This document shows positions 24,867-45,398 of a DNA stretch of 64,000 nucleotides, one piece after another (within the stretch, counting starts at the first letter, position 1; each line of letters starts with the position of its first letter). Origin of the DNA: Thermodesulfobium acidiphilum (lineage in GTDB: Bacteria; Thermodesulfobiota; Thermodesulfobiia; Thermodesulfobiales; Thermodesulfobiaceae). Below the pieces are notes generated by a model, which did not search any database, was not told the DNA's origin, and worked only from the letters and a program-made list of their open reading frames with translations. The translations under genes were made by a program, and so were the position numbers. The DNA is taken from the NCBI RefSeq assembly GCF_003057965.1, contig NZ_CP020921.1:1476916-1540915 (forward strand), given 5' to 3'.

Positions 24867-25020
24867 ATTTGAATTTAATAAAAGATATATAATGTAAGTT
24901 CTGCATTAATTATATTATATATTAATATATATTAAAAGGGTTTCTATAATGAATTTTAAAATTATTATTTTTTCTCTGTATAATTAATTAATAAATATTA
25001 CTATCAGAGGAGGTGAAAAA

Positions 25021-26082
25021 GTGGACAACTTTCCAAAACTTACTTCTTTAGTACGCTGTGCTGGCTGAGCAGCAAAACTCAATCCAAAGGACCTAGGTGA
25101 GGTTCTAAAAGATTTACCGAAATTTGAACATCCGGGCCTTATTTTTAACTCCGATGGCCTTGATGACGCGGGAGCTTTAGTTATAAAAGACGATATAGCC
25201 ATCGTTCAATCTGTCGACTTTTTCCCTCCTGTGGTAAATAGCCCTGATTTATACGGCAAAATTGCAGCAGCCAATTCTCTTTCTGATTTATATGCAGTTG
25301 GTGCAAAACCCATTACTGCTCTAAATATTTTAGGATTTCCAAGATATGATATTGAACTAAACGTCATAAATGAAATACTCAGGGGTTCCCATGAAAAAGT
25401 AAAGGAAGCAGGAGCATTGATACTGGGGGGGCATAGCATGGACGATATAGAACTTAAATATGGTCTTAGTGTTACTGGAATTGCAAAAAAAGAAGAGCTA
25501 ATAACTCACAACAACGCCCAACCTGGAGATATAATAATCCTTACAAAACCTCTAGGCACAGGAATACTTACTTCTGCTCTAAAAATCGAACTTATTGACG
25601 AAATAGATATGCAAGATGCTCTAAATTCTATGCAAGAATTAAATTATTTTGCAGGTGAAGCACAAAAAAGATTTAAAGCGAGTTCTGGTACAGATGTTAC
25701 AGGTTTTGGGCTGATCGGTCATGCAATAAACATAGCAAAATCTAGTAATGTTATATTTGAAATATTTTCAAATTCTTTACCTATTTTCGAAAGAGTACTA
25801 GAGCTCGCAGATGAAGGAGTACTACCTGCAGGAATTTTTGCAAACATTGATTTCTACAAAGAAAATGTAGTTGAAATAGGAAAAATTCAAGAAAGTTATA
25901 GATATGTTATCTACGATCCGCAAACCTCTGGGGGTTTGCTTTCCACTTATAAACCAGATGTCGTAGATGATGCTTTAAGATTTCTAATTAATAATGGAGT
26001 AAACGCACGCATTATAGGCGTTGTTAAAAACAATACGGTCTTTAATCCTGGCACGATTGTTATTAAAGAAGGGTCTATTTAA
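25021..26082 (+). CDS. selD: Selenide, water dikinase (selenophosphate synthetase), a selenoprotein with Sec at codon 16 (TGA 25066-25068)
   Basis: AGGAGGTG RBS and GTG at 25021 give MDNFPKLTSLVRCAG-U-AAKL..., in frame with DDAG, QSVDFFPPVV, AAANSLSD.YA.G, TDVTGFGL.GH and DPQTSGGLL. Confidence 0.97.
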
Positions 26083-32166: not shown

Positions 32167-33057
32167 TTGATATTAGTATTTTTAGTTTTTTTATTGATCG
32201 TTATAAAAATAGATTTTAGCCTTCAGCCAACTTCATATATAAATTTTAGCGAAAAACTTCCAAACAATTATCTTGAACAGAATAAAACCAATCTTTTAAG
32301 GGTGGTGGTTTCATCCACCCTTGACCCTAAGGAAACGATACATATCTATCAGCCACTGCTTCAGTATATTTCAAAAAAAACTGGACTTCAATCGGTACTA
32401 ATTCAAAAAAGAACTAACTTTGAAATAAAAGACTTGTTCAATTCTAAAACAGTTGATATCGGGATAATAACCGCAAGCGCCTATGTGCTTGATCAGGATC
32501 AAATGGACATTTTAGCAATACCAGTAATTAACAATGATATAACCTTTTCATCTGTTATTGTTTCAAACAAAAATAATATAAGAACTTTTGAAGACTTAAA
32601 AGGAAAATCAATAGCTTTCACCGATATTGCATCGTTTTCAGGATACCTTATCCCTTTATTTTATTTAAAAGAAAACAATCTCGATATAAACTACTTTTCA
32701 GATCACATTTTTACATTCAATAGCTCTGATTCTATTCGAGCTCTTTTGGACGATATGGTTGATGCTGCAGCTTTAAATAGCAAATTTTTTAAAACATATA
32801 TAAGAGAAAATCCTGAAAAAACAAAAAATTTACACATTGTCTGGCAGTCTCCAATAAGAATTGGCAATCCCCCAATAGTAGCCAGAAAAAACATAGATCC
32901 AGTAATTGAAAAAAAAGTTAAAGATGCCCTGATAAACATGTCAAATGATCCCGAAGGGCAAAAGATTCTTAAAACTCTAGGATATGACAGATTCTCAAAA
33001 CCTCAGCCAAATCTATATTTACCTATAAAAATAATTATCAAAAAACTTGAACAATGA
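32167..33057 (+). CDS. PhnD/SsuA-type oxyanion-binding protein associated with a two-component system (start uncertain)
   Basis: Y.PL..Y.SKK.G, DLKGKSIAFTD..S.SGYL.P and PP.V.R motifs; overlaps the kinase start. Confidence 0.85.
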   Translation: MILVFLVFLLIVIKIDFSLQPTSYINFSEKLPNNYLEQNKTNLLRVVVSSTLDPKETIHIYQPLLQYISKKTGLQSVLIQKRTNFEIKDLFNSKTVDIGIITASAYVLDQDQMDILAIPVINNDITFSSVIVSNKNNIRTFEDLKGKSIAFTDIASFSGYLIPLFYLKENNLDINYFSDHIFTFNSSDSIRALLDDMVDAAALNSKFFKTYIRENPEKTKNLHIVWQSPIRIGNPPIVARKNIDPVIEKKVKDALINMSNDPEGQKILKTLGYDRFSKPQPNLYLPIKIIIKKLEQ

Positions 33058-34454
33058 GCTTAAAAACAAAAATTTTAATCATTAATATCTTTTCAATATT
33101 TATAATAACTTTAGGAATAGTTCTTGAAATAAAGTTTGTTCTGACTCAAAATCTTGAAGACAGATTAATTTTAAGAACTACCAATATGGCATCAATTCTT
33201 TCAGATAGTATTATAGAACCGCTATTATCTAATAATATTTATTTAACCCATCAAATTCTTACTCAATACAAAGAAAATAACTCAGAAATAAGTTATATAA
33301 GCATACTAAATAGCCAGAACGAAATACTCAGCAGCACTTTCACCAACGGCTTTCCAAAAGAACTTTATCATTTACAAACTAGTAAAACGGAAAACAATGT
33401 AGCAGTATTTTCTTGTGAAATGGGTAAATTTCTCGACGTTAAGTATCCAATTGCCGATGGATCTCTAGGGTATATTCACATTGGCGTTACAGAAAAAGAG
33501 GTAGAACAAAGAATACAAGAAATTTTAGAAAAAATTCTTTTTCTAAGTTTTTTTATTAATTTATTGGCATCACTTTTACTTTACAAACTTACCAACTCAA
33601 TAACTGATAACTTAAAAAAATTAACACTATACGCAAAAAACATAGCACTTGGAAATAAGGTTTTAGAACCTGTTATTAAAACCAATGACGAAGTAAGAGA
33701 TTTGTTCATATCATTTAAACACATGCTTAAAGCATTAGAAAGGTCTTCTAAAGAAGAAATACAACTAATTACAAAGTTAAAAGACGAAGAGCTCAAAAGA
33801 GAACTCTTGAAAAGGACTATGGAAACTCTTGAAAAGGAAAGAAAAAGACTTTCAATGGAAATTCACGATTCTGTTATGCAAAATCTTGCATCTATAAATA
33901 TAATGTTAAAAATATTTCAATCAAAGCTAGATCAAAAAGAAAAATTAGACCTGGATAATATACAAAAGCTAATAGAAACGACTATAGAAGAACTCAGAAA
34001 TATTGCGAATAATCTCAGACCTCCCCAGTTAGAAAAGTTGGGTCTAAAATCAAGCTTAGAATCGTTTTTTAATGAAACTGAAAAAAGACATAATTTAAAA
34101 GTAAACTTTGATTTCTCAATAAACGAAAAAGTGTTAGACTGGACTTGGTCGATCAATATCTATAGAATAATACAGGAAGCAATATCAAATATTGTTAAGC
34201 ACTCAGGCGCAAATAATGTTTTCGTTTCAATAAAAGAGGTAAACGATAAAATTGAGCTTGAAATAAAAGACGATGGGAAAGGATTTGATGTCGATGAAAC
34301 CCTAAGCAAAAAGTCAAATCATTTAGGAATAATAGATATGAAAGAGAGGACAAAGACTTATAAAGGAGAATTTTCTATAAACTCTATAAAAGGAGGTGGT
34401 ACAATTGTCAAAATCTTTTTCCCAATACCCAAAAACAATGATATTGGTCGATGA
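33054..34454 (+). CDS. Sensor histidine kinase (HAMP + HisKA_3)
   Basis: ERKRLSMEIHDS..Q.L, LRPP.L..LGL, YRIIQEA..NIVKHS.A and DDGKGF. Confidence 0.95.
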   Translation: MSLKTKILIINIFSIFIITLGIVLEIKFVLTQNLEDRLILRTTNMASILSDSIIEPLLSNNIYLTHQILTQYKENNSEISYISILNSQNEILSSTFTNGFPKELYHLQTSKTENNVAVFSCEMGKFLDVKYPIADGSLGYIHIGVTEKEVEQRIQEILEKILFLSFFINLLASLLLYKLTNSITDNLKKLTLYAKNIALGNKVLEPVIKTNDEVRDLFISFKHMLKALERSSKEEIQLITKLKDEELKRELLKRTMETLEKERKRLSMEIHDSVMQNLASINIMLKIFQSKLDQKEKLDLDNIQKLIETTIEELRNIANNLRPPQLEKLGLKSSLESFFNETEKRHNLKVNFDFSINEKVLDWTWSINIYRIIQEAISNIVKHSGANNVFVSIKEVNDKIELEIKDDGKGFDVDETLSKKSNHLGIIDMKERTKTYKGEFSINSIKGGGTIVKIFFPIPKNNDIGR

Positions 34455-35103
34455 TCACGCTATATTAAGGGCAGGTTTAAAAGCCCTAATTCAGGAACAT
34501 CAAGAAGAATTTAAGGTAATAGAAGAAGCATCAAATGGAACTGAAGCTATAGATAAAATAAAAAAAATAAAACCAGATATTGTTCTATTGGATATATCCT
34601 TACCAGATATAAGTGGATTAGATCTAATAGATTCAATAAAAAAATATTCTATAAATACTAAAATTCTTATATTAAGTATGTTTGAAGATGAAACTATGAT
34701 TGTTAAAGCCCTAAAAATGGGAGCAAATGGATTTATACCAAAAAGATTAGCATACGAAGAACTAATTGAAGCACTTAAAACAATATCAAAAGCAGAAGAC
34801 GTATATGTCCCATCATGCCTTGCCAAAACAGTTCTTAGAGGGATGCTAAATAAAGACAAGAAGACAAAGTTAAGCACGAGAGAAAGCCAGGTTTTAAGAT
34901 ATACTGCGCTAGGTTATGGAAACAAGGAAATGGCAAAAAAACTCAACCTTTCTGTCAAAACCATAGAAACATATAAACTTAGAATTTCAGAAAAAATAAA
35001 CGCTCAAAAAAAATCCGATCTTGTAAAATACGCTATCAAAGAAGGGCTTTTAAAAGAAGAAGAAGGAACAGGTATCTCAGATCAAGAAGAAACTTCAAAT
35101 TAA
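34405..35103 (+). CDS. NarL/LuxR family response regulator (start 34405 or 34438)
   Basis: LVDDHAILRAG, LLDISLPD.SG and LS.RE.QVL...A.G..NKE.A..L.LSVKTIETY. Confidence 0.95.
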   Translation: MSKSFSQYPKTMILVDDHAILRAGLKALIQEHQEEFKVIEEASNGTEAIDKIKKIKPDIVLLDISLPDISGLDLIDSIKKYSINTKILILSMFEDETMIVKALKMGANGFIPKRLAYEELIEALKTISKAEDVYVPSCLAKTVLRGMLNKDKKTKLSTRESQVLRYTALGYGNKEMAKKLNLSVKTIETYKLRISEKINAQKKSDLVKYAIKEGLLKEEEGTGISDQEETSN

Positions 35104-37966: not shown

Positions 37967-38170
37967 TTCCTTTCTTGATTCCTCCACTACACGGTGGACG
38001 TCAGCCAAACATCAAGTACCCCTGGGATTGTTCAAATGACATGCACACTTACCTTCCTTCTTTTTGTTTACTATAAACTGCTCTATTCTAGAGATACCGT
38101 TGTTCTTTATCACGTCTTCTTTAATTTCATTATCAGTAAAACCAAAACAATAACAAATAGTTTGATTCAT
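37952..38170 (-). CDS. BFD-like/CopZ-type [2Fe-2S]-binding selenoprotein, 72 aa, Sec at codon 53 (TGA 38012-38014)
   Basis: Not in the ORF track. MNQTICYCFGFTDNEIKEDVIKNNGISRIEQFIVNKKKEGKCACHLNNPRGT-U-CLADVHRVVEESRKELNKK*. Matches the CYC...CxC...NPxGxCC pattern with UGA at the first Cys of CC, and a hairpin follows the UGA. Confidence 0.88.
37983..37998 (-). promoter_or_regulatory. Candidate bacterial SECIS element of the 72-aa selenoprotein
   Basis: On the minus strand, TCCAC-CGTGTA-GTGGA. The apical loop starts 18 nt after the UGA and has G at loop position 2. Confidence 0.65.
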
Positions 38171-38339
38171 AGTTCACCACTTTTCTAAAATATTACTATT
38201 TTTATTATAATATAAATATAATTATAAATAAATAGAAGGAGGTGTTGTCCATGTTAATTAGATGATTTACAAGAGAAACTTTAAATAGATACGTAGTTTA
38301 CGTATCACAATATACAAAATCAAGAAAAGGAGAGATATC

Positions 38340-39602
38340 ATGGACAACACCAAAATGCACAAATCGCTTGGTATAGATTTAAAGGCTCATGATACCCTAA
38401 TTAGAGCACTTCCAGAATTATTTAAGGAATGTTTTTTAAATAAAGAACAGGATCTAAAAAGTCTTTCATACTTTTATTCAGTAGTTGCTGATATACACGG
38501 GACAAGAGTAAAAGAACTAATAGAACACAAAAATAAAGGACCCGTTATTGGTTCGTTTTGTATTTACGTACCCGAAGAAATAATTTTAGCTATAGGTGGA
38601 CAACTGGTAGGCCTTTGTGCAGGAGCTGATTTTTGGGTCCCATACGGAGAACAAATAGTACCAAAAAATCTGTGCCCATTAATAAAAGCAGGTATCGGAG
38701 CAAAATTTTCAAAAACCTGCCCATACTTTCAGGTAATAGACCTGTTAATAGGAGAAAATACATGTGATGGCAAAAAAAAGGCATGGGAAATACTTTCTGA
38801 TATGGTCGAGATGTATATAATGGATATGCCAAACAAAAAAAGCAATAGTGGGTTAAAGCTTTGGCAGGAAGAAGTAAAGAGTTTATGCAATTTCCTGGAG
38901 AAAAAATTCAGCAAACCTATAAGTTTTGATTCTCTTTTAAAAGCAGTACAGAAAGTAAATGCAAAAAGAAGTGCACTAAATAGACTTTATGAAACTAGAA
39001 AAAATTCTCCGACTCCAATATCAGGAATAGATACTCTATTAGTTACGCAAATAGGCTTTTATGATGACACAGAAAGATATACAAAAATGGTAGAAACTCT
39101 TGCCAAAGAATGTGAAGAAAAAGCATTATCAAATTCTAAAAGCAATGACAAAAAAAGAATTTTGGTTACAGGCTCTCCAATGGTTGTGCCTAATTGGAAG
39201 GTTCACCATGTGATAGAAACAAGTGGTGCCGATGTAGTGGTCGAAGAAAATTGCACCGGCACAAGATATTTTAAGGACAACGTTTCAATAGAAAATTCTT
39301 TAGCTAAAGAAGATCTTTTAAAGAATATATCAGATAGGTATATAAGGAACATAAATTGTGCATGTTTTTCTCCAAACACAGATAGAGAAGAAGAGATATT
39401 AAAAATTTGTAAAGATTATAAAGTTGATGGCATTGTATATGCATCGCTTAGCTTTTGTACTACTTATATGATAGAAGCAGAAAAAATAAGAAAAGTAGCG
39501 AAAAAAAATAATATACCTATGATTACAGTAGAATCAGATTACTCGTTTTCGGATCTTGGCCAACTCAGGACAAGAATAGAAGCCTTTATAGAAAACCTAT
39601 GA
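38340..39602 (+). CDS. Double-cubane [8Fe-9S] cluster protein (DCCP)-type anaerobic reductase (2-hydroxyacyl-CoA dehydratase superfamily)
   Basis: N-terminal LGIDL.AHD.L...YF..V...IHG.R.KEL and Cys motifs FCIYVPEE, GLCAG, LCPLIK, CPYF, TCDGKKK, ENCTG, NCACF, FC; C-terminal E.DYS..D.GQL.TR.EAF.E. Confidence 0.88.
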   Translation: MDNTKMHKSLGIDLKAHDTLIRALPELFKECFLNKEQDLKSLSYFYSVVADIHGTRVKELIEHKNKGPVIGSFCIYVPEEIILAIGGQLVGLCAGADFWVPYGEQIVPKNLCPLIKAGIGAKFSKTCPYFQVIDLLIGENTCDGKKKAWEILSDMVEMYIMDMPNKKSNSGLKLWQEEVKSLCNFLEKKFSKPISFDSLLKAVQKVNAKRSALNRLYETRKNSPTPISGIDTLLVTQIGFYDDTERYTKMVETLAKECEEKALSNSKSNDKKRILVTGSPMVVPNWKVHHVIETSGADVVVEENCTGTRYFKDNVSIENSLAKEDLLKNISDRYIRNINCACFSPNTDREEEILKICKDYKVDGIVYASLSFCTTYMIEAEKIRKVAKKNNIPMITVESDYSFSDLGQLRTRIEAFIENL

Positions 39603-40348
39603 AGATACTTGGTTTGGATATAGGCTCAAGGAGTATAAAATGGGTTCTTTATGAAACAAGTTTTAGTTGTATCTTAGAAAAAGGTATATTAGACAGTACC
39701 CCACACAGTCTTGAAAGAATAGAAGAAATTATCCCCTCCTTTGACAAAATTGGTCTTACCGGTTATGGCAGACATAATTTAAACAACGTACTAAGAACAA
39801 AATCTCCAAAGATAGTTTCAGAGATAACCTGTCACGCTAAGGGAGCAAAATTTATAGAGCCAGGACACCATTATTTATTAGATATTGGAGGTCAGGATAC
39901 AAAGTTTATAACTCTCGATGCATCAGGAAAAATTATAGATTTTAAACTTAATGATAGATGCTCAGCCGGAACGGGTAGATATATTGAAAATATGGCTAAA
40001 ATTTTAGATTTAGAGATTCAAGATTTTATAAACATGGCAATTAAATCCGAAAAACCTTCTAACATAAATTCAATGTGTACCGTATTTGCAGAAAGTGAAA
40101 TAATAAGTCTAATTCATTCGAGAGAAAGAATAGAAGACATATCTGCAGGAATAATAAAATCGTTAATATTTAGAACAAAAGCCTTAATTGGAACAAATAA
40201 AATAGATGAAAAAATATTACTATTGGGTGGTCTTTCAGAATTAGAAAACATAGAGATTTTGTTCGAAAGGTTTGATTTAGAAGTCAAAAAAAATGAACTA
40301 TCAAGGTATACAGGTGCATTGGGAGCAGCACTAGTTTTAGTTGATTAA
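39599..40348 (+). CDS. ATP-dependent activase (acyl-CoA dehydratase activase / DCCP-R type)
   Basis: GLDIGSRSIK, TGYGR, EI.CH..G, DIGGQDTK, NDRCSAGTGR and INSMCTVFAESE. Confidence 0.93.
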   Translation: MKILGLDIGSRSIKWVLYETSFSCILEKGILDSTPHSLERIEEIIPSFDKIGLTGYGRHNLNNVLRTKSPKIVSEITCHAKGAKFIEPGHHYLLDIGGQDTKFITLDASGKIIDFKLNDRCSAGTGRYIENMAKILDLEIQDFINMAIKSEKPSNINSMCTVFAESEIISLIHSRERIEDISAGIIKSLIFRTKALIGTNKIDEKILLLGGLSELENIEILFERFDLEVKKNELSRYTGALGAALVLVD

Positions 40349-40364
40349 AAAATTTTCACCCCTA

Positions 40365-40393
40365 TTGACATTTTATCATAAAAAATTTATTAT
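40365..40393 (+). promoter_or_regulatory. Sigma70-type promoter of the umuDC-like operon
   Basis: TTGACA-17nt-TATTAT. Confidence 0.75.
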
Positions 40394-40422
40394 TATGAAA
40401 AATAAACAATAGGGGTGAAAAA

Positions 40423-40719
40423 ATGCAAAGAACTGGATTCCCATCGCCTGCAAAAAATTACGAAAAGCTTGATATAGATCTTAACAAATTGCTAATAGAT
40501 AGTCCTTCTTCAACATTTTTCTTTAGAACAAAGAGGGATTATAAAGAATTAGGTCTAAAAAATGGGGATATCATAATAGTAGACAGGTCAAAACATCTGA
40601 GAAAATCTATCCTATTAGTCGTTTTACTGGACGGACGCCTTACAATAAAGAATATCTGTGATATAAAGCCAGAAACAGAAATATTTGGCAAAATTACCTA
40701 TGTCATTAGAAAATTGTGA
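40423..40719 (+). CDS. umuD: UmuD-like protein (short, catalytic Ser absent)
   Basis: GFPSPA..Y....DLN.LLI..P..TFF.R, GD..IVDRS, DG..T.K and I.G..TYVI; overlaps umuC. Confidence 0.8.
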   Translation: MQRTGFPSPAKNYEKLDIDLNKLLIDSPSSTFFFRTKRDYKELGLKNGDIIIVDRSKHLRKSILLVVLLDGRLTIKNICDIKPETEIFGKITYVIRKL

Positions 40720-42051: not shown

Positions 42052-43656
42052 ATGAACTTTTTGCTCGCTATTAGCCCGATTGTGCTTATTCTTTTAGGAA
42101 TGACAATTTTTTCAAGATCAGGATTTCTAATGTCAGTATTAGCATGGATTTTTACGTTCTTTTTAGCACTTATTTTTTTTAAAACTCCATTTGATGTTTG
42201 CTTAAACGCAACAATATTTGGTATTCTAAAATCTCTAAGTATTTCGTTAGCAGTATTTTTCACTATGTTATTAATTTTTATAATGAAAGTGACAAAAGCA
42301 CTCGATTCAATTGCCTACAAGCTCAAGAACTTATGTAAAACAAAAGAAGAACAGGTAATGTTTTTAGGACTCGGTTTCGGCTCTCTTGCAACCTCTTTAG
42401 GAGTAGTAACCCCAGCTCTCTTCCCACCGCTTCTTCTTACACTAGGATTTAGTCCTGTATCATCCATTGCTATATCAGTGCTTTGTTATGATCCCTTAAC
42501 ATCATTTGCACTATTATCAATCCCAATAACAGTACCTTCAGAGGTTGCATGGCAAGCATTCAAAATACAGCCACAAGGGATAACAAACCTTGAACACTTC
42601 ATAAATACATTTACTATAAACATTTCAATTTTTTTACCATTTATTTCTATTGGATTCGCATATATAATGCTCTATTTTATAGATGGCACAAATTCTCTTA
42701 AAAAGGGTTTTACCGGTGCGTTTTTGAGTGGGTTAGTTCTTGGTCTTAGTTGTCTAATTTTTTCTATTACAAAAATATTTCCAGTACAAATAATAGGAAC
42801 GCTTTCTGGTCTTTTAACTATGATTTTCGTACTTATATATCAAAAAATTACAAACGCTCAAAAGGAAACAGCCGAAGAAGAGAAAAAGCCAGAGATGTCA
42901 CTATTAAGGGCAATTTCTCCCTGGATATTACTTTTCTTGCTTGCCCTGACAACCAATCTTCCAGGTATCAACAAATTTTTATCAGATTTGCCTGGAAAAT
43001 ATGAAGTAATCACTCTTTATAAAAATCAATCTGTAGACCTTAACATATTATCCTCTATCTGGTTTTGGATAATGATAACAACGATAATATCAATTTTTTT
43101 ACTAAAGCCTACCAAAGAACAACTTTCTTCAGTCATGAAACTCTGGATAAAGAGATCACTTTCTCCCTTCGTAGCTTATTCTATATGTTTTTCGATTGCC
43201 ATGATAATGGCCTGGTCAGCTATGTCAAATAGTTCTGGAGTTTTAGTACCAAGCACTTATTATTCATCTTTTAATATGGACAGGATCATAGCCATAAAGA
43301 TAGCAATGCTCTCAGGAGCAGTATTCACCACGCTAATACCATATCTTGGGCTAATAGGCTCGTTTATAGGTGGTTCAGAAACAGCGTCAAACGTGTTCTT
43401 TGCAAAAATATTGTATGAATCTGTAAAAAGCGTCGGTTATGAAAATTATTTTATGATAATTTTTGGCGCACATGCTGTAGCAGGTGGAATCGCTTCAGCC
43501 ATAACCCCAGCTAAGATTACTAATGCAGCTATGACAATAGGGTGTAGTGGAAAAGAAGAATCAGAATTTATGAAGAAAGCTATCTTGCCAGTTATAATTC
43601 TCACATTTCTAACAGGAATTATTTTAACTGTATTTATAAGTTTTGGCGTACAATAA
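42052..43656 (+). CDS. L-lactate permease family protein (divergent type)
   Basis: LL..LGFSP, G.IGSFI.GS.T.SN..F and GG..S.I.P..I motifs. Confidence 0.82.
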   Translation: MNFLLAISPIVLILLGMTIFSRSGFLMSVLAWIFTFFLALIFFKTPFDVCLNATIFGILKSLSISLAVFFTMLLIFIMKVTKALDSIAYKLKNLCKTKEEQVMFLGLGFGSLATSLGVVTPALFPPLLLTLGFSPVSSIAISVLCYDPLTSFALLSIPITVPSEVAWQAFKIQPQGITNLEHFINTFTINISIFLPFISIGFAYIMLYFIDGTNSLKKGFTGAFLSGLVLGLSCLIFSITKIFPVQIIGTLSGLLTMIFVLIYQKITNAQKETAEEEKKPEMSLLRAISPWILLFLLALTTNLPGINKFLSDLPGKYEVITLYKNQSVDLNILSSIWFWIMITTIISIFLLKPTKEQLSSVMKLWIKRSLSPFVAYSICFSIAMIMAWSAMSNSSGVLVPSTYYSSFNMDRIIAIKIAMLSGAVFTTLIPYLGLIGSFIGGSETASNVFFAKILYESVKSVGYENYFMIIFGAHAVAGGIASAITPAKITNAAMTIGCSGKEESEFMKKAILPVIILTFLTGIILTVFISFGVQ

Positions 43657-43661
43657 AAGTC

Positions 43662-43696
43662 TGCTACCTCCATTTAGAATCCAAATGGAGGTAGCA
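43662..43696. terminator. Bidirectional terminator between the two lactate permeases
   Basis: TGCTACCTCCATTT-AGAATCC-AAATGGAGGTAGCA, a 14-bp perfect stem. Confidence 0.8.
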
Positions 43697-43703
43697 TTAT
43701 TAT

Positions 43704-45398
43704 TTACTTTCCTACAACAGGTATTAGATTAGGAAATACATAAGCATAAATCAATCCAATTATTCCTACTAAAATTGCAAGCAAAAAGCTATGAATAAGT
43801 GCTGATCTAAACAGTGGTGCAAAGGATTCTTCTGCAACCTTTCTATCAGAAAAAGTAGCAGCTAAAGCCACCACAATAGACTGTGGACTTATCATCTTGC
43901 CCATTACGCCACCAGCGCTATTAAGAGCAGTTGACAAAATTGGATTTATATGTAACTGTTCAGCAGTAATCTTTTGAAGATTTCCAAATAGCGCATTTGA
44001 AGACGTATCTGAACCTGTCAAGAATACTCCTAAATATCCTAACATAGCCGAGAAAAACGGAAAAGCCGAACCCGTAGACGCAAAAGCCAACGCAAGCTGA
44101 ACATCCATGCCTGCATACTTATAAAGAAATGCTATCCCAACAATCGAAGGTACAACTATAAAAGGTGCCTTCATCCTATTAAAGGTAGTATTAAAAGCAT
44201 TACCCCACTGTGCTCCAGACAACCTCAACCACAAACCTGAAAGAATTGCTGCAATCAATATACCCGTTCCTGTAGCACTAAGTAGTGGTAATACAAAAAC
44301 TGCATCTTTTAAAACTGTAGGCTTAGGAACCACAGGTGGCATCTTTGTAACCAAACCGTTCAAACCTTCTATTGGAAATTTAAAAACTAGTATTGAACTA
44401 AGTACTTTTGATATAGAAGGAGTTCCCCACATGATTATAACAATAACCAGAATCAACCATGGCACCCACGCATAGAATGTTTCTCCCGCAGAATATTCTC
44501 TGTTAACCTCTTTTGCCCAGTCGGCCACCCAAACTTTTTTTGGAGACCAAAAACGAAGAAATATTGCAAGAGATATAATAGACACGATACCCGCAAGAAT
44601 GTCTATTAATTGAGGACCAAGATGCTGAGCTAAAAAGTATTGTGTTAAAGCAAAGGATATGCCCGAAACAAATGCAGCAGGAATAACCTCAGAAAACTCC
44701 GACATGCTTTTCTTCTCAAGTAAAATTACGTATGTAAACATAATCCAGAATGGAACCAAAAAAGAAAAGAATGGCAAAATTCTTCCTACCATTGCTGTGA
44801 TATCGTTCACTGGCAAGCCTGTTACTTGACCCATCATAATCATAGGAATACCTACACCACCAAATGCAACTGGAGCAGTGTCTCCCAACAGACACAAAAG
44901 AGCTGCTTCAAGAGGGGCTATTCCCATTCCTACCAATATTGCCGCACATACTGCGACAGGAGTTCCAAAACCTGCAGCACCTTCAAGGAATGCTCCAAAA
45001 CCGAAGGCAACGATCAGGACCTGAACTCTCTTATCCTGAGTAATTTTCATAATACTATGGCGCATAACATCAAAAGAACCAGATATTACAGTCATTTCAT
45101 AAAGAAATAAAACTGTTATTACTATCCAGCAGATAGGATATAACCCAATCAAAGCACCCAAAAACCATGAAAGAAATGCCTGAGTAGCTGGCATTTTATA
45201 AATACCTATAGCAATTAGAAGAGCAACTACCGCAGCAGTCACAGTGGCAAAACGCGCATCTACTCCAAGCTTCTTTCTTCCTTGAGAATCTTTCCCTGGA
45301 TGCAGTGCCAGTAAGTAAAGTAAAATAATCAACGGCAATGAGGCACAAAAAACTGATAACGCAAAATTGTTTAGCGGATCATAGTTCTGTACAAACAT
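43704..45398 (-). CDS. L-lactate permease (LctP/LldP type)
   Basis: Q.YDP..N, FGAFLEGAAGFGTPVA, TAPVAFG..G.P, GVFLTGSDTSSNALFG.LQ and GGVMGKMISPQS. Confidence 0.95.
   Translation of the reverse strand: MFVQNYDPLNNFALSVFCASLPLIILLYLLALHPGKDSQGRKKLGVDARFATVTAAVVALLIAIGIYKMPATQAFLSWFLGALIGLYPICWIVITVLFLYEMTVISGSFDVMRHSIMKITQDKRVQVLIVAFGFGAFLEGAAGFGTPVAVCAAILVGMGIAPLEAALLCLLGDTAPVAFGGVGIPMIMMGQVTGLPVNDITAMVGRILPFFSFLVPFWIMFTYVILLEKKSMSEFSEVIPAAFVSGISFALTQYFLAQHLGPQLIDILAGIVSIISLAIFLRFWSPKKVWVADWAKEVNREYSAGETFYAWVPWLILVIVIIMWGTPSISKVLSSILVFKFPIEGLNGLVTKMPPVVPKPTVLKDAVFVLPLLSATGTGILIAAILSGLWLRLSGAQWGNAFNTTFNRMKAPFIVVPSIVGIAFLYKYAGMDVQLALAFASTGSAFPFFSAMLGYLGVFLTGSDTSSNALFGNLQKITAEQLHINPILSTALNSAGGVMGKMISPQSIVVALAATFSDRKVAEESFAPLFRSALIHSFLLAILVGIIGLIYAYVFPNLIPVVGK

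Follow-up and report, generated by a model that had tools for sequence, protein, structure and literature searches.

Double-cubane cluster protein (DCCP) of Thermodesulfobium acidiphilum is encoded downstream of a leader that, on comparison with its relatives, is strongly constrained and specific to the genus. The leader lies in a 64,000-nucleotide (nt) stretch of the chromosome (the window; contig NZ_CP020921.1, forward-strand positions 1,476,916 to 1,540,915), whose numbering is used here unless a genome coordinate is indicated. An earlier interpretation of the same DNA (the sequence-only reading) described a translated mini-ORF (ORF, open reading frame) and a hairpin in this leader, and proposed that together they form a selenium-responsive switch for DCCP translation. 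Comparison among relatives favors one part of that proposal, a leader that controls DCCP translation, and goes against the other, the selenium switch. Overlooked in the sequence-only reading was a long helix, P1, predicted to form between the start region of the mini-ORF and that of the DCCP gene. This helix suggests a different mechanism.

The DCCP locus

The genome (1.77 Mb, 33.7% G+C; 16S rRNA, 54.5% G+C) carries the DCCP-type gene at 38340..39602 on the plus strand. Its 420-residue product belongs to the HGD-D family by matches to both Pfam (HGD-D, E = 2.8e-113) and the PDB, in which residues 1-418 align with 6eno and 7yyl_C at about 1e-130, as the sequence-only naming of the gene would have it. 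These entries, deposited as 'Dehydratase family protein', we take to be DCCP. The next gene (39599..40348, plus strand) encodes a BcrAD_BadFG ATPase, the putative DCCP reductase or activator, assigned through Pfam and a match to PDB 7yyl_E. By these assignments, the HGD-D protein with its adjoining BcrAD_BadFG ATPase is a double-cubane cluster protein system. Passages from a transcriptome study of Calderihabitans describe the DCCP gene pair as down-regulated under CO (PMC7306483).

Upstream, on the minus strand, a divergent gene (38012..38170) encodes a Cys-rich protein of 52 residues with a weak, BFD-like [2Fe-2S] match (Fer2_BFD, E = 4.7e-4, below the Pfam cut-off); the ORF is kept in all five lineages compared below. 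The leader element occupies the 169-nt intergenic region between this gene and that for DCCP.

Several features, all on the plus strand, follow one another in this region. The upstream Shine-Dalgarno sequence (SD1, AAGGAGGUG, 38236..38244) is complementary over 9 nt to the 3' end of the genome's 16S rRNA (GGATCACCTCCTTTCT), and a 6-nt gap separates its AAGGAGGTG from a start codon (AUG1). The mini-ORF that begins there, ATG TTA ATT AGA TGA (38251..38265), specifies MLIR and a stop. Spacer 1 (38266..38286) leads to a block, AGATACGTAGTTTACGTATCA (38287..38307), within which lies a perfect 8-3-8 hairpin or palindrome, GATACGTA-GTT-TACGTATC (38288-38306), with a predicted energy of -7.0 kcal/mol alone and -8.5 kcal/mol with flanking bases. 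Spacer 2 (38308..38339) holds the Shine-Dalgarno sequence of the DCCP gene (SD2, AAAAGGAGAG, 38325-38334), and is followed by the DCCP start codon (AUG2). The first Shine-Dalgarno sequence, the mini-ORF, the hairpin, and the 30-nt spacing from UGA to loop were all correctly located by the sequence-only reading, as was the frame that would be read if the UGA were decoded: MLIR-U-FTRETLNRYVVYVSQYTKSRKGEISWTTPKCTNRLV, 41 residues in all, ending at TAG (38374-38376) and out of frame with DCCP.

Conservation within the genus

A protein search of 41 genomes (this one and 40 relatives) found close DCCP orthologues, 86-89% identical, only in the genus's three other species. One more lineage, at 84% identity, came from a metagenome scan, where it is present on two contigs (L016 and L017) whose leaders differ at a single position in 213 nt. 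The comparison set is therefore five distinct lineages, four genomes and one metagenome lineage (six loci), all from one genus. The DCCP gene itself provides the neutral baseline: 36 of 117 four-fold degenerate sites (31%) are invariant across the five lineages, and of 323 codons whose amino acid is conserved, 120 (37%) are the same in all of them. More distant orthologues, L018 (55% identity) and L006-L008 (42-43%), show nothing comparable to the mini-ORF, the hairpin, or the helix when their leaders are read by eye; in another relative, L019, the 5' end of the gene is missing. Since the leaders of the distant orthologues are unrelated, the element is genus-specific and covariation cannot be obtained from them.

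Within the genus, conservation is sharply divided among the leader segments. SD1 and its spacer are invariant at 15 of 15 sites. The mini-ORF is invariant at 11 of 15, the variable sites being 1, 4, 6, and 9 (codon positions 1, 1, 3, and 3). Every lineage retains its own Shine-Dalgarno sequence, an ATG or GTG start, three further sense codons, and TGA. Codon 2 is TTA, ATT, or TTT (Leu, Ile, or Phe, all hydrophobic) and codon 3 is ATT, ATC, or ATA (always Ile), whereas AGA TGA is fixed; the peptide is thus M-[L/I/F]-I-R. By this comparison, such variation is the pattern of a translated, length-constrained ORF. Spacer 1 is neutral-like in sequence, with just 5 of 21 sites invariant, yet measures 21 nt in all six loci. 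The hairpin block is invariant at 21 of 21 sites, with neutral-like spacers on both sides. Spacer 2 varies in both sequence and length (32, 32, 28, 28, and 29 nt), and the DCCP start, ATG GAC AAC ACC, is again invariant.

Taken singly, these features are unremarkable: the pattern 'GGAGG, 4-10 nt, start, at most 8 codons, stop' has 295 occurrences in the genome, both strands counted. They exceed chance because they are conserved among lineages. A second MLIR-TGA, at genome position 171590, was dismissed as a chance match in the start region of a SecG-like gene.

Two further points concern the leader's reading frames. Four of the five lineages, the present genome being the exception, have a second in-frame TGA in spacer 1, two codons past the first, so that they read UGA-UUY-UGA. 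The mini-ORF stop also overlaps an AUG, as AUGA, an arrangement typical of termination-reinitiation, and the second frame that this AUG opens (38262-38288, MIYKRNFK-stop) reaches just to the hairpin's foot. Among the relatives this frame runs for 4, 7, or 7 codons or continues in frame into DCCP (G001), and its peptide is not conserved. An amino-terminal extension of DCCP from the ATG at 38262 was considered and rejected, the frame being closed by TAG at 38286-38288. A separate observation concerns relatives G002 and G003 (L004 and L005), where a CUCU in spacer 2, about 30 nt before the DCCP start, is predicted to pair with the GGAG of SD2. This local anti-Shine-Dalgarno sequence is absent from the window.

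A predicted helix between two start codons

The sequence GGUGUUGUCCAUG (38241..38253) is the perfect reverse complement of CAUGGACAACACC (38339..38351), and the two can form a 13-base-pair helix, P1. The left arm runs from the final four bases of SD1 through the spacer to AUG1, and is invariant at 12 of 13 sites; the right arm comprises AUG2 and DCCP codons 2-4, GAC AAC ACC. The predicted minimum free energy (MFE) of the folded leader is -30.5 kcal/mol (z = -5.23; 0 of 200 shuffled sequences fold as well), and that of the P1 duplex alone is -21.9 kcal/mol. Mean pair probability for P1, computed in four flank contexts, is 0.99 at 37 C and 0.96-0.97 at 65 C. The helix is present in the MFE fold of all five lineages.

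Such complementarity is rare. Perfect inverted repeats of at least 13 nt at a spacing of 40-130 nt number only 17 in the 1.77-Mb genome, and in 12 of these both arms lie within long open frames. Among 1251 crudely defined gene starts, that of DCCP is the sole one with a complement of at least 12 nt in the upstream 150 nt; the runners-up reach 11 nt (two genes) and 10 nt (three genes). Only two substitutions are seen in P1 among the lineages: an A-U pair becomes G.U, in the ATG to GTG start change, and a G-C pair becomes G.U. Both are tolerated only in plus-strand RNA. The right arm is made of C-ending codons that are minor in this genome (usage 0.234 for GAC, 0.309 for AAC, and 0.146 for ACC), identical nonetheless in all five lineages.

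Predicted accessibility depends on how much of the leader has been made. When the RNA ends before 38339, so that the right arm is not yet transcribed, AUG1 is 0.37-0.72 unpaired. When the right arm is present, AUG1 and AUG2 are both 0.01 unpaired, and SD2 is 0.83-0.91 unpaired.

Other roles for the two arms were considered. They do not bound a miniature inverted-repeat transposable element or an invertible segment, since the arms are unique in the genome, the six loci have a common orientation, and the DCCP amino terminus is as long as in L006. No conserved -35/-10 pair lies in the variable spacers between the arms, and a promoter scan found none there. In a separate observation, the start region of the SelD gene (GTGGACAAC, 25012-25030) has the 8-mer TGGACAAC in common with the DCCP start, so that the left arm could pair with the SelD start in trans. 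Rough arithmetic indicates that an 8-mer coincidence among about 1250 starts is not unexpected.

A model for DCCP control

Together, these results suggest, with a probability that we place at about 0.5, that the DCCP leader is a control element acting by translational unmasking, composed of helix P1, the four-codon ORF, and the hairpin block. The model supposes that transcription starts upstream of 38236 and that the mini-ORF is translated. The sequence of events is probably as follows, and its effect on DCCP probably positive. In the completed, folded mRNA, P1 would bury both start codons and leave SD2 exposed. A ribosome would instead engage SD1 and AUG1 while the leader is still being transcribed and the right arm does not yet exist. 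The left arm contains AUG1, and the mini-ORF ends 12 nt past the arm. Because the ORF is only four codons long, the ribosome would move at most 12 nt from AUG1 and would cover the left arm throughout its stay. With the left arm covered, P1 could not close, and a second ribosome would take the DCCP start as AUG2 emerges. With no ribosome on the leader, the mRNA would lock with both starts buried.

The UGA in this model is an ordinary stop. The second UGA, present in four of five lineages, would be a back-up that keeps leaky ribosomes off SD2 and AUG2. The four-codon ORF, acting as a holder of the ribosome, would explain the fixed length of the ORF, the need for a strong stop, and the second UGA. 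The hairpin block is treated as a distinct site recognized by its sequence, most likely by a protein that binds RNA or DNA, and would set or modulate the switch. Its complete invariance, which includes the loop and the flanking A residues, argues for sequence-specific recognition rather than a purely structural role.

Several points weigh against the unmasking model. Double-sided compensatory changes are seen in 0 of the 13 P1 pairs (within one genus only), so that the case for the helix is its rarity and complementarity rather than covariation. Both arms also have other reasons to be conserved: the left holds SD1, AUG1, and a possible minus-strand -35 element (TGGACA), and the right is coding sequence. 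The geometry of the ribosome footprint is that of textbooks. Closed P1 would block the mini-ORF too, and the model therefore requires co-transcriptional loading. Unmasking does not explain the invariance of the hairpin and its loop, nor the fixed 21-nt spacing between these and the UGA.

If the model is correct, the leader would be a minimal example of a co-transcriptional checkpoint for ribosome loading, with a compact design: the start codons pair with one another, and the ORF is short enough that its ribosome never uncovers the masking strand. It would also provide a reason why some conserved bacterial upstream ORFs span just a few codons. So elaborate and conserved a leader would imply tight translational control of DCCP dosage in the genus, and the invariant hairpin offers a handle for finding the regulator, and perhaps the signal to which DCCP responds.

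Selenocysteine genes and the hairpin

The genome encodes SelA, SelB, and tRNA-Sec, together with at least two genuine selenocysteine (Sec) genes. One is an FdhA-type molybdopterin gene (genome coordinates G000:C1:1090454-1092076, minus strand) with a single in-frame TGA at 1091812 (...HQARI-U-HSSTV...) and a selenocysteine insertion sequence (SECIS), GACC-AGUUUA-GGUC. The other is SelD (25021-26082), itself a selenoprotein: an in-frame TGA at 25066-25068 (VRCAG-U-AAKLNP) is followed after 21 nt by the hairpin GGACCU-AGGUG-AGGUUC, and a plain ORF caller starts the gene at 25231. SelD is syntenic with DCCP in all four genomes, lying about 13.3 kb upstream. An FdhA-type paralogue (G000:C1:1084825-1086444, minus strand) has Cys and lacks the hairpin, and the relatives keep the same Sec/Cys pair.

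Passages of a recent description give the consensus for bacterial SECIS (bSECIS) elements: a loop of 3-9 nt, a stem of 4-16 base pairs, and a G in one of the first two loop positions that is usually followed by G or U; a distance from UGA to apical loop of 16-37 nt; and an MFE of at most -7.5 kcal/mol (PMC13188914). This model was reimplemented in an MFE-based form; a simpler perfect-stem filter was dropped when it failed even genuine elements. The candidate hairpin passes, with a 3-nt loop (GUU), an 8-base-pair stem, a distance of 30 nt, and an MFE of -9.2 kcal/mol for a 65-nt stretch. Both genuine SECIS controls pass as well, but specificity is low: so do 992 of 15000 random genomic TGAs (6.6%).

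The genuine elements were compared across the genus, in three of four genomes for FdhA (the G002 copy being cut by a contig end) and in all four for SelD. Their stems change with compensation, GACC/GGUC to GGCC/GGCC in G003 for one and GGUUC to GGUCU in G002 and G003 for the other, and the hairpin is gone from the Cys paralogues. The candidate has AGUUUA in common with the FdhA loop but lacks the GACC...GGUY stem of both FdhA and SelD. An Rfam scan of the leader at E values up to 10 found no meaningful family, and the genuine SelD SECIS likewise went undetected, so the scan is no guide to SECIS membership.

Alternative explanations

The switch proposed by the sequence-only reading would have the hairpin act as a SECIS, Sec inserted at the UGA, and readthrough ribosomes crossing SD2 and AUG2, such that DCCP expression follows selenium supply. 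The machinery is present and used, as SelA, SelB, tRNA-Sec, and the FdhA-type and SelD selenoproteins attest, and the hairpin falls within all four bSECIS limits and carries the FdhA loop sequence. The stop is TGA in all five lineages, as the proposal predicted, even though TGA accounts for just 21% of the genome's stops; in no lineage does TAA or TAG interrupt the mini-ORF frame ahead of the DCCP start, a stretch in which the other two frames have 0-4 stops; and the UGA lies at a fixed 21 nt from the hairpin block. The TGA, however, belongs to an 8-mer that is invariant throughout, and its persistence therefore says nothing specific about Sec; the frame, though free of TAA and TAG, is interrupted in four of five lineages by the second TGA two codons on. 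Nor does the UGA sit inside a coding frame conserved on both sides: upstream there are four codons, and downstream, conservation of the readthrough peptide does not extend beyond the palindrome (invariant spacer sites, 5 of 21), and indels of 3-4 nt place it in different phases with respect to DCCP (the two starts being 89, 89, 85, 85, and 86 nt apart). The covariation that the sequence-only reading set as a test for the hairpin is not found; the element is frozen where genuine SECIS stems show compensatory changes, it lacks their stem sequence, and 6.6% of random TGAs pass the SECIS model as well. The start-to-start helix explains the architecture without selenium. A literature search turned up no bacterial regulatory upstream ORF in which a UGA is recoded to Sec, nor any bacterial case of such recoding used as a sensor rather than to make a selenoprotein, and the passages retrieved contain no link between DCCP and selenium. 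A selenium-following switch of this kind is accordingly very doubtful indeed. Highly improbable, too, is a genuine SelB-dependent recoding site, formed by the UGA and hairpin within a regulatory mini-ORF, at which ribosomes supplied with selenium would pass one or two UGAs, give up the four-codon holding position, and sweep SD2, AUG2, and the right arm; if true, selenium status would reset translation of an ATP-driven low-potential reductase. SelB might alternatively act without recoding, the SelB-GTP-Sec-tRNA complex binding the hairpin in the 5' untranslated region and repressing initiation, as at E. coli selAB. The G-U in the apical loop, the six loop nucleotides identical to those of the FdhA SECIS, and the invariance expected of a protein site would all fit. 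Against this, the hairpin lies 14-18 nt from SD2, at a distance that varies with spacer 2 (28-32 nt), whereas passages of a recent preprint place the selAB SECIS-like element 3 nt before the Shine-Dalgarno sequence (bioRxiv 10.64898/2026.03.03.709296); the hairpin lacks the GACC/GGUY stem that the genuine elements have; and DCCP is not evidently a selenium gene. Such an operator is very unlikely.

Two further alternatives do not invoke selenium. In one, the conserved blocks are overlapping divergent promoters, the palindrome is the operator of a dimeric transcription factor, and the mini-ORF and the 13-nt complement are by-products. The palindrome, perfect and invariant through its center and flanks, resembles a sequence-specific protein site. 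A promoter-like TTGATT-N18-TAAAAT (38162..38191, plus strand, 9 of 12 consensus positions) is a candidate for the DCCP promoter, with a transcript start near 38198; the site scores 10 of 12 in L004 and is not listed for L003 or L016. For the divergent gene, TGGACA-N19-TATAAT (38222..38252, minus strand) was read by eye, its -35 element falling within the P1 left arm; in the relatives, where the spacer is N18, the score is 11 of 12 for both L003 and L016 and 10 of 12 for L004. The palindrome lies downstream of every plus-strand promoter candidate, and its center, by arithmetic, about 82 bp upstream of the transcript start implied for the minus strand. In the distant orthologue L006, moreover, the divergent upstream gene reads as a putative LysR-type regulator. 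However, no transcription factor gene adjoins the present locus. The nearest regulator, a NarL-type two-component system 3 kb away (33054-35103), has no TACGTA pair in its intergenic regions, and a link to it was rejected. The genome contains one other TACGTA-N3-TACGTA, inside a coding region, and no second intergenic copy. With its center left free, the palindrome was found in 43 stretches among the genomes of 185,579 species; these are scattered across taxa, 36 lie within frames of at least 80 codons, and only one (L063) is the same leader, so the notion of a widespread operator was discarded. Promoter-like sites are no commoner here than in shuffled sequences. Promoters also leave unexplained the invariance of SD1 within a promoter spacer, the codon-like variation of the mini-ORF, and a perfect 13-nt complement at 1 of 1251 gene starts, and the ATG to GTG change weakens the proposed -35 element to CGGACA yet preserves both a start codon and an RNA pair. 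Control at the DNA level is thus possible but unlikely. In the other alternative, one that the sequence-only reading had listed, SD1 near the 5' end, with or without the mini-ORF, recruits a ribosome that keeps 5' exonuclease off the mRNA; further structural protection comes from P1 and the hairpin, and DCCP translation is not switched. The STAB-SD of Bacillus cryIIIA is a stabilizer with this mechanism. A TATAAT at 38217-38222 would set the 5' end about 6 nt before SD1, and SD1, with its 9 nt of complementarity, is far stronger than a four-codon product needs. Nevertheless, a stabilizer could do without a stop kept at codon 5 and without a helix burying the DCCP start codon (0.01 unpaired), and it leaves the sequence invariance of the hairpin unexplained. 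Stabilization of this kind is quite improbable.

Comparison with known systems

The unmasking model closely resembles the inducible translational attenuation leaders of cat and erm genes and other upstream ORFs that act as sensors. There too, a short upstream ORF with its own Shine-Dalgarno sequence precedes a helix that hides the main initiation region, and a ribosome on the leader keeps the helix open. The DCCP leader differs in that its ORF has only four codons, and in that the masking strand is the leader ORF's own Shine-Dalgarno sequence, spacer, and start, so that the two start codons pair mutually. It also has no alternative (anti-) hairpin, no known inducer, and controls a low-potential Fe-S reductase rather than a resistance gene.

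Coupling by unmasking also operates between the coat and replicase genes of MS2 and in the rpmI-rplT operon of E. coli, where long-range pairing hides a downstream start until it is opened by ribosomes on the upstream cistron. There, the upstream cistron is a genuine gene whose coding sequence supplies the masking strand; here, a four-codon holder would take the place of the gene, and its initiation site would do the masking. Minigenes provide a further parallel. Passages on the LEE1 leader of enterohaemorrhagic E. coli report that the next gene, ler, is optimally expressed only when a two-codon minigene is translated (PMC3262186). As in the model of the DCCP leader, the ORF is very short, the leader long, and both the stop and its position matter. 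The minigene has two codons rather than four, those passages describe no start-to-start helix, and the organism and gene are unrelated.

Resemblance to bacterial SECIS elements is limited to a UGA and a stable hairpin whose G-first apical loop comes 30 nt later, in an organism that decodes Sec. In contrast to these elements and to selAB, the DCCP leader has no conserved protein sequence flanking the UGA, a second UGA in four of five lineages, a frozen palindrome, and a long and variable distance to the Shine-Dalgarno sequence.

The transposase mRNAs of IS10 and IS50 are inhibited by fold-back, and the native IS10 transcript escapes by starting inside the repeat. As is predicted for P1, an upstream inverted repeat pairs with the initiation region, such that some transcripts are silent; unlike IS10, no conserved promoter was found between the P1 arms. 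The IS10 scheme better fits a second inverted repeat about 2 kb downstream (40353-40421, TTTTCACCCCTATTG / CAATAGGGGTGAAAA, -27 kcal/mol), the core of which is kept in all five lineages. Its right arm is the Shine-Dalgarno sequence of an S24-peptidase (UmuD-like) gene at 40423, with a UmuC-type polymerase gene next in order, and a promoter-like TTGACA-N17-TATTAT lies between the arms. Readthrough transcripts from the DCCP operon would fold back and hide this Shine-Dalgarno sequence, whereas transcripts from the inner promoter would not, as for IS10. This SD-burying repeat suggests that the genus uses such masking. Beyond it, 42052-45398 holds two convergent genes of the lactate-permease family, one matched strongly (43704-45398, minus strand, 3e-148) and the other much more weakly (42052-43656, plus strand, 5e-43).

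By analogy with these systems, a start-to-start helix with a four-codon holder would be a variant of unmasking by a leader ORF, in which the initiation site of the ORF itself would serve as the mask.

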